The notes under the pieces: generated by a model
The model's database searches: none
Told to the model about the DNA's origin: nothing
Seen by the model: only the letters and a program-made list of their open reading frames with translations
Made by a program: the position numbers and the translations under genes
Shown here: in pieces, positions 7,453 to 48,715 of the stretch
Position numbering within the stretch: the stretch's first letter is position 1
Layout of the letters: each line of letters starts with the position of its first letter
Assembly: GCA_030650495.1 (NCBI GenBank)
Contig: JAUSEB010000032.1
Span: 1-50,146 of the forward strand
Direction: 5' to 3'
DNA length: 50,146 nucleotides
Source: Armatimonadota bacterium
GTDB lineage: Bacteria > Armatimonadota > UBA5829 > JAUSEB01

Positions 7453-7484
7453 AGCTGTCAGCTGTCAGCTGACAGCTGACAGCT
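7453..7484. repeat. perfect 32-nt palindrome (AGCTGTC)2(AGCTGAC)2AGCT
   Basis: agctgtcagctgtcagctgacagctgacagct equals its own reverse complement. It encodes the last residues (..QLSADS) and the stop codon of the DUF721 gene. Confidence 0.95.
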
Positions 7485-26027: not shown

Positions 26028-26858
26028 CTATTCAGCCGCCAATATCTCCCGCGCTATCCTTGCGTTTTCCTGTATCTGATTTGCGTGTTTACTGAAAACC
26101 CCGACGGTCACTGTGTCAATCGGCTTGATGTTCGAGTAGGCGAACTCGAACGCCCGGCGAACTTCCTCCGCCGAACCACACCGTCTTCCTGCTCCGAGTA
26201 TCTTAAACGCGACCACCGGCTTGCTTACTTGCCTGATTGTCCGGCACATCCTCTCAGGATCATCCTGCAAAAACTGCTCCTCATGCGCCCTTCCGGTAGC
26301 GACGAAACTCTCTCGCGGCGTTCTACTTAGGTTGTAGAAGCAGCAGGCGTAAAAATCCAAATCCCATCCCTGCGACTCCACTTCCTCGATAACTTCAGGA
26401 TCGTGCGCGCCAAGTCCGATTGCAACGCCCAAGTCGCGCATCATCTTCAGCCGCTCGCGCATTACCCCAAGCCGTCCCATTTGGTAATGCTCGTCAGTCA
26501 CTCCGCCATGCAGATATACAGCCGACGCGCCCCAAGCCTTTATCTGCTGTACGTAGGTGGGAAAATCGCCGATCTCCGGGGCTGTCTGAGCCAGCCATTT
26601 GATAGCGCCGCCCTCATCCCAATACTCTTTCAACAACCGGCGGATGTGCATATCCGCCCTTAGCTGAGCAGTGGTGATGCCGCATCTTTCGCATTCGCGC
26701 AGGTCGTTCTTGATATTGGCGACCGTGTAGTAGTCCAGCATATCATTGCTTAATTCAACGCTCAGGTGGGAGTTTCCGGCGAAGGGATTGCCGCCTACCA
26801 TCAACCGGGAGACGGTCAGGTTTCCCAGTTGGACTTGAGGGAGAGTCATGCTGTCCAT
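26028..26858 (-). CDS. hypothetical protein (276 aa), family not recognised
   Basis: A long ORF with coding-like composition and no competing recognised gene. The N-terminus QLGNLTVSRLMVGGNPFAG is vaguely aldo-keto-reductase/TIM-barrel-like, but this is only an impression. Confidence 0.6.
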   Translation of the reverse strand: MDSMTLPQVQLGNLTVSRLMVGGNPFAGNSHLSVELSNDMLDYYTVANIKNDLRECERCGITTAQLRADMHIRRLLKEYWDEGGAIKWLAQTAPEIGDFPTYVQQIKAWGASAVYLHGGVTDEHYQMGRLGVMRERLKMMRDLGVAIGLGAHDPEVIEEVESQGWDLDFYACCFYNLSRTPRESFVATGRAHEEQFLQDDPERMCRTIRQVSKPVVAFKILGAGRRCGSAEEVRRAFEFAYSNIKPIDTVTVGVFSKHANQIQENARIAREILAAE

Positions 26859-26973: not shown

Positions 26974-27000
26974 AAGCTGTCAGCTGTCAACTGACAGCTT
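26974..27000. repeat. AGCTGTC-family palindrome
   Basis: aagctgtcag (26974-26983) pairs with ctgacagctt (26991-27000); 7-nt loop. Confidence 0.9.
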
Positions 27001-27012
27001 GAAACTAAGCTC

Positions 27013-27041
27013 TTGCAATACGGCCCGCTAACGAATAGAAT
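27013..27041 (+). promoter_or_regulatory. promoter TTGCAA-17-TAGAAT, predicted leaderless transcript
   Basis: ttgcaa at 27013-27018 and tagaat at 27036-27041. The ATG at 27049 lies 7 nt after the -10 and has no Shine-Dalgarno. Confidence 0.45.
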
Positions 27042-27048
27042 CTGCGTA

Positions 27049-27543
27049 ATGGCAAACACTCAACAATCAGGAACACGAATATACACAATCGGCCACAGCA
27101 GCCACACTCCCGAAGAGTTCGTCAGGCTTTTACGATTGCACGAAATCAAGCTGGTGGTCGATGTCCGCAGCGCGCCCTATAGCAAATACACGCCGCAGTT
27201 CAATAAGTCGGAATTGGAATATATGCTCACCCAGGCGCAAATAGGTTATCGTTACTCCGGCCAACAGCTTGGCGGCAAACCATCCGACGAGTCTCTTTAC
27301 ACGCCTTCGGGCGCTCCCGATTTCGACGGCATCGCATCACGGCCTGAGTTCGCGCGGGAGCTTGAGGCGGTTATCGGCTTAGCGCGCGAGGAGGCAATCG
27401 CCATAATGTGCAGCGAGGGCGAACCAATAATGTGTCACCGCGAACGCCTGCTGGCGCGGCATCTGCGGTCAATGGACGTGGAAGTCCTGCACATACTCCC
27501 GGACGGAACGCTGCTGCGGCAGGAACAAGGGACGTTGTTTTAG
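27049..27543 (+). CDS. DUF488 domain protein (164 aa)
   Basis: RIYTIGHSSHTPEEFVRLL..VVDVRSAPYSKYTPQF...YSGQQLGG...IMCSEGEPIMCHRERL is the typical DUF488 (PF04343, YeaO-like) motif pattern. Confidence 0.85.
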   Translation: MANTQQSGTRIYTIGHSSHTPEEFVRLLRLHEIKLVVDVRSAPYSKYTPQFNKSELEYMLTQAQIGYRYSGQQLGGKPSDESLYTPSGAPDFDGIASRPEFARELEAVIGLAREEAIAIMCSEGEPIMCHRERLLARHLRSMDVEVLHILPDGTLLRQEQGTLF

Positions 27544-27578
27544 CTTTATATTCTATTCAGAGGTAACCAAGAGGGGAT

Positions 27579-29564
27579 TTGAAAAATATCATTCAGCAAT
27601 TAGCGCTAACAATGACTTTCCTATTAGTGGGAAGCGTGTCAGTCACGCAGGCGGCGGAAGCTCCAAAACCAAAAGTTGAGGCTCCTGCTTCCGTTGAAGC
27701 CGCCGATTCAAGGCTGGACCAGAAAATAACCTATAAGGCTGAAAAAGCCACGCTTCCGAAGGTTCTTTCTGACATCAGCAAGCAGACCGGCGTCCTGATG
27801 GGAGTTGCGCCCGGCTCGCGGTTTTGGTCCGTGCGTCAAAGGAAAGTATCTCTTTTCATCAAGGACATGCCTCTTCGCGAGTTTATGAACCAGCTTGAGA
27901 CTCTTCTCGATTACCATTTCACCCGCCAGGGAGAGCCTGACAAATGGGTTTATGCGATCTGGCAGGATATGAAAGGACGAAAAAAAGAGCAGGATACGAT
28001 TCAGCTTCAAAAAGTGGAACTGGAACGGCATCTCAGGCGCGTGATAGATGAGACTCTCAGGGACGCTGAACTCGCGATGCTTATGTTGCCCGAAGACGCG
28101 GAGAAAATAAGGGCGCGTAATCCCTGGCTTGCTTACCTTGCGGGAAATCCAAGAGGAAGAGCTTACGCCGAGCTTCTGATGTCTATTCCCAGGGAGAAGT
28201 TCGATATGCTGATGGATAGAGAGAGACACGGTTTCAGCCTTGAATTATCCGAACTTCCACCGAAAGGGCAGGATGCGCTCAAGAAAATCCAGTCGTTGAT
28301 TGACTTTGATAGGATCATTAAGGACTACGATGGTTACAATGAAAACAAAGATTCCCTGAACGCCCGGCAAGTGACGGAAATATCGCTTTATAATCCAATG
28401 TGTGGCGAAGTAGATAGTTACCCGACACCCCCGCTGCCGTTTTGGCTTAATGTGCAAGCCGGTTCTTTTGGGGTGGATACATTCGTGATTGCGCGGTCTG
28501 ATGTCCCTATGAGTGACATCAAAATATCCCCAGGTGAATGGAATGATGAAGAACGATCCGCGAGAGAAATGCATTCGGATAATCTGCGCGCGCTAAATGA
28601 GAAATCCATCAAGAAAGATAATGAAAAACCGGACCCCGACCTCGAACGCGCAGCCGACTATACGGGAAAGAAACCGGCTGAAGGTCAAAAACAAATAGAC
28701 TTCGAGATGGAGCAATTGGCCGGCCTGTTCGGTCTTAATGTGATGTATGAATGCTTCCCCATTGGCAACTCCGGCTCCATAACCCATGGGAATGAACGCA
28801 AATTGCAAAGGGTCTTGGAAGATTTGGTCTCCCAATATCGCCTTGGTTGGACAAAAACAGGCAATTTGGTCAAGTTCCGCTATCAGAACTGGGCTGAGAG
28901 ACGGTCGTGGGAGATACCCGATGAGTGGGTGCAAGGCTGGCTGGCGCAAATAGAGGAGAAACTGGAACTCGATTTCGACGCGATGGTAGATATGGCGGCC
29001 AGATTGACCGACGCTCAGATCACTCACAACTTCGGTATGTCTTCCGCCAATTGTATTGACGACCCATTGCTTGTTCATGTATTCCTTGCGGCTAACGCCC
29101 ATACAGCGGCTGATGGGCGCGTATTTCTTGAGTTATATGGACGTTTGACTCCGGCGCGAAAAGCCATGATCTGGAGCGAAGAAGGCCTGTCGTTTGAAGA
29201 GATTATGGATGACCCTCTTTATGGAAGGGAATCTCCAACAATAGGCAGCGCTCCGATTTATGATGGCTCTGTTCAGCTTACTAAAAGAAAAATTCCGAAC
29301 TCTCAAGATGACGCCGTATTCTTAGGCGTGAAACAGCGTGTATGGCTAAGAGATTTGTCCCCCGAAGATAGAGAGAGTGTGAACTCCTTCAAACTACAAG
29401 AAGACGTATCGGTGAAAATGGACAACGATTTTGTTGAAATAAGCATGAGTGGAGATTCCCCATTGTTCCCGGTGGACCATGCGAGAGTCAAGGCCGCGCT
29501 TGATAAGCTGAAGCAGGCGCGGGAAAAGGCCGCCGAAGAGAAAAAACAGGCCGGGCAAGATTAA
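27579..29564 (+). CDS. secreted hypothetical protein (661 aa), family not recognised
   Basis: TTG start after gagggga. Signal peptide MKNIIQQLALTMTFLLVGSVSVTQAAEA. The N-terminal segment KATLPKVLSDISKQTGVLMGV is faintly STN/secretin-N-like. Lys/Glu-rich C-terminus. Confidence 0.7.
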   Translation: MKNIIQQLALTMTFLLVGSVSVTQAAEAPKPKVEAPASVEAADSRLDQKITYKAEKATLPKVLSDISKQTGVLMGVAPGSRFWSVRQRKVSLFIKDMPLREFMNQLETLLDYHFTRQGEPDKWVYAIWQDMKGRKKEQDTIQLQKVELERHLRRVIDETLRDAELAMLMLPEDAEKIRARNPWLAYLAGNPRGRAYAELLMSIPREKFDMLMDRERHGFSLELSELPPKGQDALKKIQSLIDFDRIIKDYDGYNENKDSLNARQVTEISLYNPMCGEVDSYPTPPLPFWLNVQAGSFGVDTFVIARSDVPMSDIKISPGEWNDEERSAREMHSDNLRALNEKSIKKDNEKPDPDLERAADYTGKKPAEGQKQIDFEMEQLAGLFGLNVMYECFPIGNSGSITHGNERKLQRVLEDLVSQYRLGWTKTGNLVKFRYQNWAERRSWEIPDEWVQGWLAQIEEKLELDFDAMVDMAARLTDAQITHNFGMSSANCIDDPLLVHVFLAANAHTAADGRVFLELYGRLTPARKAMIWSEEGLSFEEIMDDPLYGRESPTIGSAPIYDGSVQLTKRKIPNSQDDAVFLGVKQRVWLRDLSPEDRESVNSFKLQEDVSVKMDNDFVEISMSGDSPLFPVDHARVKAALDKLKQAREKAAEEKKQAGQD

Positions 29565-29581
29565 AGTCGAAGGGGTTTATT

Positions 29582-30022
29582 TTGACTATCTATACAATAG
29601 GCCACACGAAGAAGAACCTGAAAAAGTTCATCGAACTGCTCACCGGCGCGGGCGTTGACGCCGTGATAGACATACGCCTCAACAACAAGTCCCAGCTTGC
29701 GGGTTACGCCAAGCAGGACGACCTGTCATTTCTATTGGAGACGTGTTTCAACATACGCTATCTGCATTTGCCTGAACTTGCGCCGACAAAAGAATTGCTC
29801 GACCGTTATCGCACTGACAAGAATTGGCAGCAATATGAGTTAGAATTCACTGAAATCATCCGCGAGCGTGACGCAATAGCGCGCGCAATGCCGGTTATCT
29901 CAGAGTTCGAGCGACCATGCCTGCTCTGCAGCGAGCATCAACCGGCGAAATGCCATAGGAGGCTTGTCGCGGAGCTATTCGCGGCGCGGGATAACGGCCT
30001 GGAGGTGGTCCATCTGCCGTGA
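29582..30022 (+). CDS. DUF488 domain protein, second diverged paralogue (146 aa)
   Basis: TIYTIGHTKKNLKKFIELL..VIDIRLNNKSQ...LLCSEHQPAKCHRRLVAE. TTG start after gaagggg. Confidence 0.85.
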   Translation: MTIYTIGHTKKNLKKFIELLTGAGVDAVIDIRLNNKSQLAGYAKQDDLSFLLETCFNIRYLHLPELAPTKELLDRYRTDKNWQQYELEFTEIIRERDAIARAMPVISEFERPCLLCSEHQPAKCHRRLVAELFAARDNGLEVVHLP

Positions 30023-30702
30023 CGGACGAGATCGTAGTACTTGCGGTCACTAAGATGTTGAGCGGGATGTGCATCGGAGGCATTTCGCTATCGACTGGCG
30101 AGTGGGTCAGGCCGATCAAGGAGTTCGGGACCATACTCCCCGGCGACCTGGCTTACGTGGACGGCGCCCCAATTCGCCCATTTGATGTGGTCGAGTTTTC
30201 ATTGGCCAAACATCGGCCAAAGGCTCCTCACATAGAGGATTGGGTTTGCGACTTCATAAGAGAACGCCCGGTATTAGCCCGGCGGTTGGAAGAGCGGGAA
30301 CGAGAGGCGTTCCTACAAAAACATGCCGAGCCGGGCGGCTACGAGGAAATCACGAATCAGAAACGATCACTCTGCCTACTCGACTCGCAGGAGGCGCAGG
30401 CGCTTTTCTCATTGGACGCTTATTCGGGCAAGTACCAAGCCAGACTCTATTTTCCCGCTCTTGGACGGCAGCGCGCCGTCCCCGTCACCGACATCAAGTG
30501 GAGGGCATTGGGAAGGCGTTTGATTGGAGATGGAGGGCGCGTAAAGCTAAGCGCGGAGCAATTGCGCGAGATAACCGGGGCGCGTAGTATCTATCCGGCC
30601 ATTGGGCTGAGCCGCCAGTACGAGGGGAAGTTCTGGCCGCTGATAGTCGGGGTCCACTGTTTGCCGGATTATGAGGCCGAAGTTGACTACAGGAATTTGT
30701 GA
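30019..30702 (+). CDS. hypothetical protein (227 aa) translationally coupled to DUF488 and RecQ
   Basis: The GTG start overlaps the DUF488 stop (GTGA, 30019-22), and its own stop TGA (30700-02) overlaps the recQ start. The N-terminus VVLAVTKMLSGMCIGGISLSTGEWVRPI is not a family I can name with confidence. Confidence 0.7.
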   Translation: MTDEIVVLAVTKMLSGMCIGGISLSTGEWVRPIKEFGTILPGDLAYVDGAPIRPFDVVEFSLAKHRPKAPHIEDWVCDFIRERPVLARRLEEREREAFLQKHAEPGGYEEITNQKRSLCLLDSQEAQALFSLDAYSGKYQARLYFPALGRQRAVPVTDIKWRALGRRLIGDGGRVKLSAEQLREITGARSIYPAIGLSRQYEGKFWPLIVGVHCLPDYEAEVDYRNL

Positions 30703-32957
30703 TGAAATGGACATTTAGGCTAAATAAACCGGACGATAAGCTTGAACCGGCGGGCGCTCCCACCGGATACAGGAAAGAGGGATTTGCTCGTCCTCGGCGA
30801 GTTGGCGGAGTTGGTTTCGGGAACAAGATTCCCGAAACACCAACAACACCAAACACTAAGTCGGTTTCGGGGAAAGGGTTCCCCGAAACAACGGGAACAC
30901 CAAATTCCAAGCCGGTTTCGGGGAAGGGGTTCCCCGAAACAACGAGCGAATTCGTCCGCGAGCCTCTGCGGGAGCCTGAGACAAATCCTGAGTTGGAAGC
31001 GAATCTGAGGAAGCTCTTCGGCCACAGTTCGTTTCGCAAGGGACAGCAGGCGATTATCGAATCAATTTTGGATGGCAAAAGCACGCTTGCTATCATGCCG
31101 ACCGGCGCGGGCAAGTCGTTGTGCTATCAACTTCCCGCGCTCCTTGCGGACCCGACGACACTCGTCGTTTCGCCTCTTATAGCTCTTATGAAGGACCAGG
31201 TCGAGGGGCTGCCCGACACGGTTCAACATGCGACTACGCTTATTAACAGTTCCCTGGAAAGCGATGATCTGGAAAAGCGTGTCGCGGAAATAAAAGCCGG
31301 ACGTTATAAGCTGGTCTATGCGGCTCCTGAGCGGCTCCGGCAGCGTCCTTTTCTTCACGCTCTGGCGACGTGTGGGATTTCACTGCTTGTTGTGGACGAG
31401 GCCCACTGCCTGAGCATGTGGGGCCATGATTTCCGTCCCGATTATCTATACATCGGCAAGGCTTTGGATATGCTCGGCAACCCGACGCTTTTAGCGATGA
31501 CGGCCACCGCCGCGCCGGAAACACAACGGGAAATCTCGGCCTATCTGGGCCGCAAGCTTGAGATTGTGAACGCGGGGACCTTCAGGCCAAATCTCAGGCT
31601 TGAGTCCAGGATTCTTAAAAACAACGAGGAGAAAGCGCGGGAGTTAGTCGCTCTTTGCAACGAGATGAGCGGTTCGGGCATAGTCTATGTTTCGTCCCGC
31701 GAGCGCGCGGAGCGGCTGGCAATTCTTCTGCGCAGGCACAATGTCCGCGCAAAATACTATCATGCCGGGATGGAGCCGCAGGAGCGCAGTCAGACACAGG
31801 ATGAGTTTATGGATGACCGATATAGAGTCATAGTCGCTACGGTCGCGTTCGGGATGGGCGTGGATAAAGCCGACGTGCGATTTGTGATTCACTATTCGCT
31901 GCCTCATTCCATCGAGAACTACTATCAGGAAGCCGGGCGGGCGGGACGCGACGGCAAGCCTTCGCGCTGCATTCTGTTGAGCACATCGAGCGATAAGGCC
32001 AATCTGACCCGCTGGATGAACAGCGAGCGGATAAACATGGAGAACCTCCGGGACACGTACCGCGCGATCACACGGCGAATACCGTCGGGCGGCGGCAACA
32101 TAATCCACGACGATGATCTGCGGCGTGACGCGCAAATTGACGAGACAAAGACGCGCGTGGCCATCAGTTTGTTGGAAAAAGCCGGTATGCTTGTCCGGCA
32201 CTTCGACCTGCCGGTGACCGCAAACATAGGCGTTCGATCAGCGGGAGGAATTACAGATCAGGAGTTCACCCAATTTGTCGACAAAGCGCGGCTCCGGCCT
32301 AATCAGCGCCTGGCTATCGAGACTTTGGAACTGGTCGAACGCACGGGGATTCCCGCCACTGAAATCGAAGGCTTGCTCCTCAAATGGCGCGACTTTGGGT
32401 GGATTAACTATCGAAGCTCAGGCCGCGCCATGTTCTTAGAGAGGCCTCCCGCCAGGCCGGGAATGCGCGAGCTTCTTGATGACATGCTGCGCAGATATGA
32501 GAGCGAGCAGTTACGGCGGGTGGAGCGCATGGCCGAATACGCCAAGAGCAAGCATTGCAGGCACGGTATGATCGCCGCTCATTTCGGCGACGCTCCCATC
32601 AAACGCTGCGGCCAGTGTGACGTTTGCGATCCGGGGAAGACCTCATCCGCCGCTCCCGCCCCGACTGGGCCAAGCGTGTCGAAAGCGGAGACACGAGCGA
32701 TTATACTTCAAGCCGTCGCCACGGTTCCATATCCCGTTGGCTGGACGGGACTTTTCAGGCTGCTTAAAGGCTCGATTGAAAGCTCGATCACAAAAGACAA
32801 ATGTCCATATTTCGGCGCGCTGGCGGGGGAGACCAAATCGGAGGTTGAGAACGCTATTAGCGAGCTATTGGAACAAGGCTATCTGGAGCGTGACACCGGC
32901 GAATTCCGCCTGCTTTCCCTCACGGCAAAGGGCCGCGCCGCGATTAAATCCACGTAA
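30699..32957 (+). CDS. recQ: RecQ-family ATP-dependent DNA helicase with ~100-aa repeat-encoded N-terminal extension
   Basis: Motif I MPTGAGKSLCYQLPA, DEAH box LVVDEAHCLSMWGHDFRPDY, VATVAFGMGVDKADVRFVIHYSLPHSIENYYQEAGRAGRDG, Zn-binding CRHG..CGQCDVC. An in-frame TTG at 30993 is an alternative start downstream of the repeats. Confidence 0.9.
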   Translation: MMKWTFRLNKPDDKLEPAGAPTGYRKEGFARPRRVGGVGFGNKIPETPTTPNTKSVSGKGFPETTGTPNSKPVSGKGFPETTSEFVREPLREPETNPELEANLRKLFGHSSFRKGQQAIIESILDGKSTLAIMPTGAGKSLCYQLPALLADPTTLVVSPLIALMKDQVEGLPDTVQHATTLINSSLESDDLEKRVAEIKAGRYKLVYAAPERLRQRPFLHALATCGISLLVVDEAHCLSMWGHDFRPDYLYIGKALDMLGNPTLLAMTATAAPETQREISAYLGRKLEIVNAGTFRPNLRLESRILKNNEEKARELVALCNEMSGSGIVYVSSRERAERLAILLRRHNVRAKYYHAGMEPQERSQTQDEFMDDRYRVIVATVAFGMGVDKADVRFVIHYSLPHSIENYYQEAGRAGRDGKPSRCILLSTSSDKANLTRWMNSERINMENLRDTYRAITRRIPSGGGNIIHDDDLRRDAQIDETKTRVAISLLEKAGMLVRHFDLPVTANIGVRSAGGITDQEFTQFVDKARLRPNQRLAIETLELVERTGIPATEIEGLLLKWRDFGWINYRSSGRAMFLERPPARPGMRELLDDMLRRYESEQLRRVERMAEYAKSKHCRHGMIAAHFGDAPIKRCGQCDVCDPGKTSSAAPAPTGPSVSKAETRAIILQAVATVPYPVGWTGLFRLLKGSIESSITKDKCPYFGALAGETKSEVENAISELLEQGYLERDTGEFRLLSLTAKGRAAIKST
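30813..30944 (+). repeat. three tandem ~50-nt units, each with a gtttcggg(g)a..tcccc(g)aaac palindrome, inside the recQ 5' region
   Basis: Palindromes at 30814-30838, 30864-30889 and 30915-30940. They are read in frame as GFGNKIPETP / VSGKGFPETT / VSGKGFPETT. Confidence 0.9.
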
Positions 32958-32969
32958 TCATCGTTAATC

Positions 32970-33000
32970 GGTTTCGGGAACAAGATTCCCGAAACACCAA
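32970..33000 (+). repeat. 31-nt exact copy of 30813-30843 immediately after the recQ stop
   Basis: ggtttcgggaacaagattcccgaaacaccaa is identical at both places; 10-bp stem palindrome. Confidence 0.95.
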
Positions 33001-33178: not shown

Positions 33179-34318
33179 TCATTCAGCTTCCTTGGGCGTG
33201 GATTCAGCCTCGACCGGTCTGAAGAACAGGCCTGAAACTTCTAAAGAGCTGTTGAAAGTGACTTGTATATCGATCTTGCCGTTTTCAAACTTGCAGCCTA
33301 CAAATACAACGTCATACGGAGCGACTTTCTCCACCCGCGAGCCGGTTCGACGATTGAACGCGCCGCCTTTCTCAGCTATATCCTGCCAAGCTTTGGCAAG
33401 TTTCGCGGCGGGCAGGGCAGCCTTCATCTGATTATCAAAACTCTGCGCCGCTGTCAAGAAGTCGTCTTTCAAAAGGAGATCGACAAATGCTTCCGCGCAC
33501 GACTTCAATTCCGCTTCGCTGGCCGCCTCTTTCGTCATAACATCAAAACCACTGATCTGCCTGCTCTCGTCGAAATTGATGTTGAGCATCAGGGTGGATT
33601 TCTCGAACTCGCAGGCCAGAAGCACGGCCGTGGATTTGCCCGTGGACGCAACCCCGCCGCGAGCGTCTCCGCATTTCTTGAAAGCTCCGTTGGCGGAGAG
33701 CGCTCGCTCCCACTTCTGCTTCAGTTTCGCCGCGCCGGTTTCGGCGTTTGTGGCGTCAGTTGTAAAAGTCACCGCGTCGGAATACTCCTTTTTTGCCAGA
33801 ACCCCGACAAACTCGCCAGCCAGAGACACGAGTTTCTCATCCGGCGGAGGCGGTTTCAATACTGATAAATTCTGTTGTGAAGCCTCGCCTGTTGGCTGGC
33901 TAACGGCTGGAGCCTGCTGAACGGGCAGAAAATAAAGTCCACTGACACGTTTGGATGTGTTAAAAGCGATCTGGATGTTGACAACAGACTTCTGAAATTC
34001 AGATTTCGCGACCACAACATCGAATCGCTGGCCATCCTGATCGGCAACCTCGAGGTGAACGCCAAGCTGGCCTTTGTATGCGCCGGCCTGCTCTATCAAA
34101 GCTTTCCAGTTCTGCCGGAGTTTGTCTTCGGGCATTGTCGCTTTCATGTTGCTGTCGAAGTTTCTGACGACTCTGGAGAAATCCTCCTTTACCAGATAAT
34201 CGATAATCGTATTCGCGGCGGGCACAAGAGCGCCTGCCCGCGATGCGGATTGTTGGGCTAGAACCGCCTGGGCCGATAGTGAGAATATTATTAAAACGGC
34301 GCAAACAAGCTTTTTCAC
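33179..34318 (-). CDS. secreted protein with three tandem DUF3887-like domains
   Basis: Signal peptide MKKLVCAVLIIFSLSAQAVLA. The pattern F(D)xxMKxxxPxxKLxxxWxxxxxxxGAFxx...V..FN.S..VSG(L/F) occurs three times. Confidence 0.7.
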   Translation of the reverse strand: MKKLVCAVLIIFSLSAQAVLAQQSASRAGALVPAANTIIDYLVKEDFSRVVRNFDSNMKATMPEDKLRQNWKALIEQAGAYKGQLGVHLEVADQDGQRFDVVVAKSEFQKSVVNIQIAFNTSKRVSGLYFLPVQQAPAVSQPTGEASQQNLSVLKPPPPDEKLVSLAGEFVGVLAKKEYSDAVTFTTDATNAETGAAKLKQKWERALSANGAFKKCGDARGGVASTGKSTAVLLACEFEKSTLMLNINFDESRQISGFDVMTKEAASEAELKSCAEAFVDLLLKDDFLTAAQSFDNQMKAALPAAKLAKAWQDIAEKGGAFNRRTGSRVEKVAPYDVVFVGCKFENGKIDIQVTFNSSLEVSGLFFRPVEAESTPKEAE

Positions 34319-38763: not shown

Positions 38764-38794
38764 GCTATCAGCTGTCAGCTATCAGCTGACAGCT
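38764..38794. repeat. AGCTGTC-family palindrome
   Basis: agctgtcagct (38770-38780) pairs with agctgacagct (38784-38794), loop atc. It is preceded by a degenerate unit gctatc. Confidence 0.9.
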
Positions 38795-39059: not shown

Positions 39060-39091
39060 AGCTGTCAGCTGAAAGCTGACAGCTGACAGCT
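39060..39091. repeat. AGCTGTC-family palindrome
   Basis: agctgtcagct gaa agctgacagct is identical to the core at 47257-47281, plus an extra gacagct. Confidence 0.9.
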
Positions 39092-46858: not shown

Positions 46859-46916
46859 CTATCAGTTATCAGTTATCAGCTGTCAGCTGTCAGCTGTCAG
46901 CTGACAGCTGACAGCT
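46857..46916. repeat. AGCTGTC-family array/palindrome (8.5 units)
   Basis: agctatc agttatc agttatc agctgtc x3 agctgac x2 agct. It starts inside the atpG stop codon. Confidence 0.95.

Positions 46917-47254: not shown

Positions 47255-48715
<1,461 letters not shown>

Follow-up and report, generated by a model that had tools for sequence, protein, structure and literature searches.

Which process joins two DUF488 paralogues, a 227-aa protein and a RecQ-family helicase in one compact gene cluster? The question is raised by positions 27,013 to 32,957 of contig JAUSEB010000032.1 from an Armatimonadota bacterium (GenBank assembly GCA_030650495.1). The whole stretch of DNA analysed, positions 1 to 50,146 of this contig, is referred to as the window. 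A first-pass annotation, made from the letters of the window alone, described five same-strand open reading frames (ORFs) at this locus, and all five are found where it placed them. Four of them, encoding the two DUF488 proteins, the dual OB-fold (DuOB) protein of 227 amino acids (aa) and the RecQ, are well supported as one functional unit because of their conserved synteny and because of DuOB-RecQ fusions that occur in the same gene order. The fifth, a 661-aa gene, is a later arrival. The promoter and the five genes are as follows.

27013..27041, plus strand: sigma-70-type promoter TTGCAA-17-TAGAAT (promoter scan; conserved in the related loci L001 and L043)
27049..27543, plus strand: DUF488 paralogue 1 (DUF488-1), PDC-M45B type, 164 aa (PF04343 and PDC-M45B matches)
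27579..29564, plus strand: 661-aa protein with a signal-peptide-like N-terminal segment, lineage-specific insertion (synteny; GC content at third codon positions, GC3)
29582..30022, plus strand: DUF488 paralogue 2 (DUF488-2), DUF488-N3a / PDC-M45C type, 146 aa, TTG start (PF04343, PF22751, PDC-M45C)
30019..30702, plus strand: DuOB protein, 227 aa, GTG start (PF22557, PDC-M45A)
30702..32957, plus strand: RecQ-family helicase, ATG start at 30702, alternative GTG at 30699 (Pfam, TIGR00614)

Conservation of the four-gene unit

GTDB species-representative genomes were scanned with a DuOB alignment, which yielded 38 loci, and the gene order in these loci was read by tblastn with the window proteins. 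The loci belong to at least three phyla: Armatimonadota, Chloroflexota (Anaerolineae, Ktedonobacterales, Caldilineaceae, Chloroflexia) and Poribacteria. The genes are carried on one strand and always in the same order, DUF488-1, DUF488-2 (DUF488-N3a), DuOB and RecQ, and this order recurs in about 25-30 species. Both DUF488 genes are present in 28 of the 31 loci with room upstream, and RecQ is present in 24 of the 27 with room downstream. Two genes in which DuOB and RecQ are fused lie directly 3' of DUF488 and DUF488-N3a, and thus repeat the same four-module order. The adjacency of DUF488, DuOB and RecQ is therefore conserved across phyla, and the proposal of the first-pass annotation that these proteins act together is borne out by the synteny, by start-stop overlaps that are kept in relatives and by the fusions. 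The conserved operon coupling and the independent fusions indicate that DuOB is a dedicated partner of RecQ.

Operon layout, junctions and promoter

The gaps of 35 nucleotides (nt; 27544-27578) and 17 nt (29565-29581) and the overlaps GTGA at 30019-30022, between the DUF488-2 stop and the DuOB GTG, and GTGATGA at 30699-30705 are present as first described. The coupling of the junctions extends to close relatives, where the overlaps are also kept: the DUF488-2/DuOB junction is a 4-nt overlap there, and the two DUF488 genes overlap as TTGA. At the DuOB/RecQ junction the ATG shares one base with the stop codon, the sequence being TGATG in the window and in L001 and TAATG in L043. The conserved start of RecQ is accordingly this ATG at 30702, with a 1-nt overlap with the DuOB stop, and not the GTG at 30699.

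The -35 and -10 hexamers and their spacing to the ATG are kept in L001 (TTGCAT-17-TACAAT) and L043 (TTGCGC-17-TACAAT). The TTG at 27013 thus belongs to the -35 hexamer of a promoter shared with these loci and does not serve as a start codon. Since the ATG at 27049 lies only 7 nt after the -10 hexamer, the operon mRNA is probably leaderless or nearly so. In a terminator scan, sites were no commoner than in shuffled sequences and there was no sign of termination between the genes of the cluster. Rfam and tRNA scans of the region gave no matches.

The DuOB protein

The 227-aa protein, first regarded as an orphan, has a family. It matches PF22557 DuOB with 76.7 bits against a cut-off of 27 (3.5e-21; residues 4-162 aligned with profile positions 2-172 of 210) and has 564 homologues, while an exhaustive profile search gave 1,046 DuOB cluster representatives. 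The closest relatives are found in metagenome-assembled genomes of Armatimonadota, at 70-71% identity, which fits an origin of the window in that phylum, and identity roughly follows taxonomy. The window protein is a divergent member: the PDC-M45A model covers its residues 2-78 only, and hhalign gives a 91% probability over about 130 columns. The AF2 model (pLDDT, predicted local distance difference test, 93.4; pTM, predicted template modelling score, 0.90) has two beta-rich domains. Its top Foldseek matches, all of them weak, are without exception tandem-OB DNA binders (HIN-200, RADX, LEF-3, Teb1). PDB sequence and profile searches with DuOB gave no matches, and Foldseek against the viral BFVD library gave no significant match to the model. 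We know of no solved structure and no function for DuOB.

DuOB is joined to a complete RecQ, HRDC included, in the single proteins P0248 (1,047 aa) and P0348 (900 aa), and to RQC and/or HRDC in P0310 and P0369. Among P0320, P0321 and P0362 the family also includes fusions with HEAT repeats or a Swt1-like HEPN domain as the partner: P0320 combines DuOB with a HEPN domain, and P0362 consists of DuOB, RQC and HEAT repeats. The members P0326, P0352 and P0378 carry N-terminal extensions of 130-180 aa that have no Pfam match, and P0388 has a similar extension.

The DUF488 pair

Both DUF488 proteins begin, as first described, with xIYTIGHx (RIYTIGHS and TIYTIGHT) and carry a C.E...CHR motif (MCSEGEPIMCHR and LLCSEHQPAKCHR). 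Against the PF04343 gathering cut-off of 22.2, DUF488-1 scores 72.2 bits (7.7e-20) and DUF488-2 scores 80.4 bits (2.1e-22). DUF488-2 also meets PF22751 DUF488-N3a, the 'active' subclade, with 44.4 bits against a cut-off of 27 (2.4e-11); a Pfam scan of DUF488-1 gave no match to this model. The two are homologous to each other (hhalign probability 99.1%). To our knowledge DUF488 is a large family to which no activity has been assigned by experiment; E. coli YeaO is presumably a member.

The motif residues are strictly kept. G-H-S, D.R and C.E...CHR are invariant across 16 orthologues of DUF488-1, C116, E118, C124, H125 and R126 are invariant in 28 homologues of DUF488-2, and C.E...CHR is retained by each paralogue across about 30 orthologues; both putative enzymes appear to be catalytically intact. 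Because both diverged paralogues keep the invariant Cys-x-Glu...Cys-His-Arg centre, they are probably a heteromeric pair. The AF2 model of DUF488-2 (pLDDT 88) is a Rossmann-like alpha/beta domain, in which the strand 112-116 ends in Cys116 and the helix 125-136 opens with His125-Arg126 (C-x9-R). As modelled, the geometry of Cys116 and His125-Arg126 is that of a strand-loop-helix catalytic arrangement. PDB sequence and profile searches with DUF488-1 and DUF488-2 gave no matches.

Burroughs and Aravind are said to have placed DUF488 in the rhodanese-phosphatase superfamily in 2023 and to have predicted DNA-end processing in nucleic-acid-modifying conflict systems. In the DUF488-2 model the conserved Cys/His/Arg centre has a strand-loop-helix arrangement, but its spacing, C-x9-R / CHR, is not the classical C-x5-R.

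The RecQ helicase and its N-terminal tail

The helicase meets the RecQ-family model TIGR00614 with 378.5 bits against a cut-off of 219.8, and contains the Pfam domains DEAD (9.4e-28), Helicase_C (4.3e-23), RecQ_Zn_bind (40.2 bits, cut-off 25; 5.9e-10) and RQC (35.6 bits, cut-off 23; 8.8e-09) as well as MPTGAGKS and DEAH motifs. No HRDC match was found in a Pfam scan. The canonical RecQ equivalogs are not reached (TIGR01389, 457 against 640.2; NF008279, 362 against 1015). The protein begins with a low-complexity tail of 97 aa, after which come the helicase core, the zinc-binding domain and the RQC. Between Helicase_C and the zinc-binding domain lies a segment of about 150 aa (ORF residues about 445-598) that has no Pfam match, aligns over its full length with operon-linked RecQ homologues and appears to be a clade-specific insert.

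The N-terminus is the variable part of the helicase. The RecQ ORF of most loci from Chloroflexota and Poribacteria follows directly on DuOB and opens with a TPR domain of about 270-300 aa; such RecQs include those of L002, L007, L009, L012, L013, L015, L016, L018 and L020 (TPR_16 4.9e-10). In the window, L001 and L043 the TPR domain is missing and low-complexity tails of 97, 40 and 17 aa are found instead. In L019 and L037 about 130-170 further residues precede the TPR domain of the RecQ ORF and, by eye only, resemble a Vsr/DUF559-type endonuclease. The window tail contains hairpins that resemble repetitive extragenic palindromes (REP) and belong to the same family as a hairpin beyond the gene.

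30813..30945, plus strand: three REP-like hairpins inside the RecQ N-terminal tail, in frame, with a 51-nt period (repeat comparison, RNA fold)
32970..33000, plus strand: REP-like hairpin 13 nt past the RecQ stop (31/31 identity to the copy at 30813-30843)

Where translation of RecQ begins is thus a question of its own. Initiation at the conserved ATG 30702 is probable; if the start is there, the favoured explanation is that the helicase has a disordered tail which has taken up copies of the REP element. The alternative, a conceivable but less probable one, is that RecQ starts at the in-frame TTG 30993, that the 290 nt before the core are a non-coding REP-hairpin spacer and that DuOB and RecQ are uncoupled here. 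In favour of a spacer, the tail has no homologue in any related locus, and most of it is made up of hairpins identical to the copy outside the gene and to a dispersed family whose sites are mostly intergenic. The region also folds strongly as RNA (z-score -5.0), and its composition (GC1 0.557, GC2 0.557, GC3 0.515) lacks the coding signature of GC3 above GC2 seen in genes here (about 0.65 and 0.41). The TTG start is opposed by the ATG itself, whose 1-nt overlap with the DuOB stop is kept in the window, L001 and L043, and by the TPR-bearing RecQ ORFs of Chloroflexota, which likewise begin right after DuOB. Furthermore, only 1.2% of shuffles leave the frame of 97 codons open, the other two frames are interrupted by 2 and 7 stops, and the 51-nt period of the repeats (17 codons) is a multiple of three.

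The inserted 661-aa gene

The 661-aa gene has a GC content of 0.488 and a GC3 of 0.524. For comparison, 27 other genes of the window have a mean GC of 0.546 (sd 0.028) and a mean GC3 of 0.651 (sd 0.046), and none of them has a GC3 as low. The rough count from which a low GC had first been suspected was therefore right in direction, and the low GC3 fits a foreign or recent origin. In none of the 38 related loci is there a match to the protein, and only 6 homologues were found among 5.8 billion proteins. The homologues examined (L039-L042) are encoded just 3' of a SurA-like peptidyl-prolyl isomerase (PPIase; Rotamase_2) and never near DUF488. The suggestion that the gene is a later insertion is thus upheld by its absence from related loci, by the location of its relatives elsewhere and by its GC3, the lowest measured.

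In related loci the two DUF488 genes are adjacent or overlapping, and the insertion site is the ancestral TTGA junction: DUF488-1 still ends in ...GTLF and DUF488-2 still begins with TTG. The 661-aa gene is a lineage-specific insertion that is unrelated to the four-gene system. It is probably co-transcribed with its neighbours, because no terminator-like site above background separates it from them. The protein has a signal-peptide-like segment where a signal peptide had been noted, and profile scans still leave it without a family: no Pfam, NCBIfam, PADLOC or PDB match was obtained, and STN was sub-threshold (13.2 bits against 28.4). The proximity of the family to a SurA-like PPIase hints at an envelope or periplasmic role. 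In L019 (9349-9804), and likewise in L022, L027 and L037, a PD-(D/E)XK (PDDEXK_3) gene lies between DUF488-2 and DuOB; insertions into the operon are thus tolerated in other lineages also.

Relation to known systems

The first-pass annotation knew of no described system of this composition. However, the three small proteins match the PADLOC models of PDC-M45: DUF488-1 matches PDC-M45B (1.8e-47), DUF488-2 matches PDC-M45C (3.1e-49) and DuOB matches PDC-M45A (8.3e-12). Pfam also holds DuOB and DUF488-N3a. PDC-M designates a multi-gene candidate found by guilt-by-embedding, PDC-M45 being a three-family cassette (Payne et al., bioRxiv 10.1101/2024.01.29.577857). The PDC systems were nominated from a copy embedded in BREX, DISARM or type I restriction-modification (RM) loci, and the 145 systems, PDC-M45 included, are untested candidates (Payne et al., bioRxiv 10.1101/2024.01.29.577857). 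The window cluster shares with PDC-M45 the families DuOB (M45A), the longer DUF488 (M45B) and DUF488-N3a (M45C). It differs in order and content, the archetype having the order A-B-C and no helicase, whereas the window has B-[661-aa insert]-C-A-RecQ. It differs also in context, which is chromosomal and housekeeping in the window, while the archetype is embedded in a defence locus. By its gene families and their order, the window cluster is thus a RecQ-equipped, rearranged chromosomal variant of a catalogued candidate cassette, with an insertion. Full-text literature searches on DuOB, DUF488-N3 and PDC-M45 found nothing relevant.

RecQ helicases work with OB-fold partners in other systems, namely RecQ with SSB in bacteria and BLM with RMI1/RMI2 and RPA in eukaryotes. 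The pairing of the window RecQ with a putative multi-OB-fold protein, through operon coupling and fusions, is similar. Unlike those partners, DuOB has no detectable sequence similarity and no significant structural similarity to SSB, RPA or RMI; the window system adds two putative enzymes, and its RecQ is without HRDC.

The PADLOC models of DpdF, from the Dpd 7-deazaguanine system, and of PsyrT score 462 and 367 bits on the helicase core, but the window cluster contains no further Dpd component and no PsyrA. An identity of the helicase with DpdF was rejected, as NF041063 gives 237.7 against a cut-off of 550 and no other Dpd component matches in the cluster. The high scores reflect generic similarity of the RecQ core.

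Proposed function

The reading preferred here, in which confidence and doubt are evenly balanced, is that the four genes are one co-transcribed, DNA-acting unit in which RecQ, DuOB and the DUF488 pair process DNA ends, and that in the Armatimonadota/Chloroflexota clade this unit serves as a chromosomal genome-maintenance module. As to substrate, chemistry and biological role we infer the following. The operon would be read from the promoter at 27013-27041 as a probably leaderless mRNA, with its genes chained by start-stop overlaps. RecQ would unwind DNA that it has loaded onto at an end, a gap or a branched structure, and DuOB would hold the exposed single strand or the single-strand/double-strand junction. 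The DUF488 pair would use its cysteines to process a phosphate or sugar-phosphate group at the terminus of the DNA so exposed. Two events in the window lineage would be secondary: the insertion of the 661-aa gene at the DUF488-1/DUF488-2 junction, and the loss of the RecQ N-terminal TPR domain, with a REP-derived low-complexity tail in its place.

The role in genome maintenance is proposed because the copies of the clade sit among housekeeping genes. The flanks of the window and of 37 related loci are metabolic or housekeeping, with rpsF, ssb, NFACT, PPIase, nitroreductase, glycoside hydrolases, SerRS and PGM. They contain 174 Pfam families, none of which recurs more than 4 times, and among 113 flanking proteins of the 37 loci two match PADLOC models at 1e-10. 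The defence-island setting that the first-pass annotation had considered is thus not seen in the RecQ-linked clade.

Several observations weigh against this reading. The archetype of PDC-M45 (DuOB, DUF488, DUF488-N3a) is borne by the Allochromatium tepidum plasmid pAt1, where a type III CRISPR-Cas locus surrounds it. The fused version in L141-L143 follows HerA, an uncharacterised 535-aa protein and a type II (Dam-type) methyltransferase, and DUF488(-N3a) is paired with mSLOG-DUF4326 on small enterobacterial plasmids. Repair accounts for these CRISPR, HerA/methyltransferase and plasmid settings no better than defence or nucleotide-signal processing does. The unit is, moreover, modular and not obligate, since some relatives lack parts of it: L003, L004, L017 and L044 are without RecQ, a MatE gene following DuOB in L044, and L008, L017 and L020 are without the DUF488 genes. 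None of the Foldseek matches of the DuOB model reaches significance (best E 0.014, TM no higher than 0.34). Membership of the DUF488-2 model in the rhodanese-phosphatase fold was likewise not confirmed, as Foldseek against the PDB found no protein tyrosine phosphatase (PTP), rhodanese or RapZ-C fold and its best match (E 2e-3) was a generic Rossmann-like domain.

Some details of these settings may be added. On pAt1 (L137, 4714-6438) the archetype cassette lies between csx16/cas1 and csm6, and a link to cyclic-oligoadenylate signalling is possible. In L141 (721-8703; also L142 and L143), which is probably archaeal, the genes from the HerA-like ATPase through the DuOB-RecQ fusion are packed on one strand, and the cluster adjoins a PIN/AF2212-like pair. 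DuOB, DUF488-N3a and DUF4326 occur together on a Citrobacter IncP plasmid.

The rival that survives best is defence against phages or plasmids, a possible if rather unlikely explanation for the window. The cluster would then be a helicase-equipped PDC-M45, in which the role of RecQ and DuOB is to recognise invading DNA, whose ends are modified or disabled by the DUF488 pair. The matches of all three small proteins to the PDC-M45 A/B/C models speak for it, as do the nomination of PDC systems from BREX, DISARM and type I RM loci, the position of the archetype in a plasmid-borne CRISPR-Cas locus, that of the fused version directly behind HerA, the 535-aa protein and the methyltransferase and near a PIN toxin, the 165 plasmid records that carry DUF488-N3a relatives, and the existence of a DuOB-HEPN fusion. 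However, PDC-M45 is itself only a candidate and has no helicase component. In the RecQ-linked clade the flanks are housekeeping, with the two PADLOC matches among 113 proteins; family scans found no defence or mobility genes within the 50-kb window, nor is there a tRNA. DuOB had no tblastn match in phage or plasmid collections, and its identity roughly tracks taxonomy. For the window clade, genome maintenance is therefore weighted somewhat above defence.

It is improbable, to a greater degree, that the DUF488 enzymes act not on DNA ends but on nucleotides, nucleotide-derived signals or RNA termini, such as ADP-ribose derivatives or cyclic-phosphate ends, with RecQ and DuOB serving as sensor or scaffold only. 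This would suit the pairing of DUF488-N3a with mSLOG-DUF4326 on enterobacterial plasmids, a role having been put forward for DUF4326 in the processing of terminal phosphates of ADP-ribose derivatives (PMC9503650), and also the place of the PDC-M45 archetype between csx16 and csm6 in a CRISPR locus of the cyclic-oligoadenylate-signalling kind. It is opposed by the partners that recur in close linkage and as fusions, namely a DNA helicase carrying RQC/HRDC DNA-binding modules, and OB folds; moreover, a Pfam scan of the window cluster found no SLOG, CARF or similar sensor domain. That the genes are neighbours by chance and have no joint function, as the relatives without RecQ or the DUF488 pair might suggest, is hardly credible, being contradicted by the cross-phylum gene order, the kept start-stop overlaps and the DuOB-RecQ fusions in the same context.

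The preferred end-processing reading can be carried further, on a tentative footing. The unit may represent an uncharacterised DNA-end-processing pathway, made up of a heteromeric, cysteine-dependent, phosphatase-like pair, a RecQ and an OB partner, which has been co-opted for defence in some lineages and retained as a housekeeping repair module in Chloroflexota and Armatimonadota. If this were true, a new enzymatic activity would be assigned to DUF488, a domain of unknown function found across bacteria. Four modules that travel together across at least three phyla make for a hypothesis that can be tested, and they define a minimal gene set for biochemical work. That a single gene set is found both among housekeeping genes and in neighbourhoods linked to CRISPR, HerA or a methyltransferase matters for the interpretation of defence candidates derived from embedding. 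The window copy is not the best one for such study because of its inserted foreign gene and the REP-invaded N-terminus of its helicase.

Palindromic repeats and neighbouring genes

The first-pass annotation described the block as delimited by palindromes at 26974-27000 and 32971-32995. Both palindromes are present, but they do not delimit the block: they belong to two different genome-wide REP-like families, neither of which marks a boundary. The left family, (GCTGTCA)n/(GCTGACA)n, has 10 matches in the window against 0.01 expected, and its six sites are all intergenic.

7454-7483: (GCTGTCA)n/(GCTGACA)n site
26976..26998, no strand assigned: REP-like palindrome GCTGTCAGCTGTCAACTGACAGC of this dispersed family, in the divergent intergenic region just 5' of the operon promoter
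38771-38793: (GCTGTCA)n/(GCTGACA)n site
39061-39090: (GCTGTCA)n/(GCTGACA)n site
46879-46915: (GCTGTCA)n/(GCTGACA)n site
47258-47280: (GCTGTCA)n/(GCTGACA)n site

The left palindrome is not present upstream of the operon in L001 or L043. It was rejected as a LexA-type operator, being a dispersed repeat that is not conserved in these two loci. The right palindrome, GTTTCGGGAACAAGATTCCCGAAAC(ACC), is found as an exact 25-mer on 91 metagenome contigs (loci L046-L125), mostly in intergenic positions, and the GTTTCGGGAACAAGATTCCCGAAAC hairpin is often paired with its inverted relative GGTGTATCGGGAATCTTGTTCCCGATAC. This family recurs three times within the block, at 30813-30945. A mobile block marked by the palindromes was likewise rejected, as both belong to dispersed repeat families. 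Like REP and bacterial interspersed mosaic elements, both are short, strong, dispersed hairpins whose copies are often inverted pairs; they differ in that one window family has three copies inside an ORF, the RecQ tail, and in codon register.

The divergent upstream neighbour of the operon (26028-26858, minus strand) encodes a protein of 276 aa that has no Pfam match. The convergent downstream neighbour (33179-34318, minus strand) encodes a secreted protein with three DUF3887 repeats.

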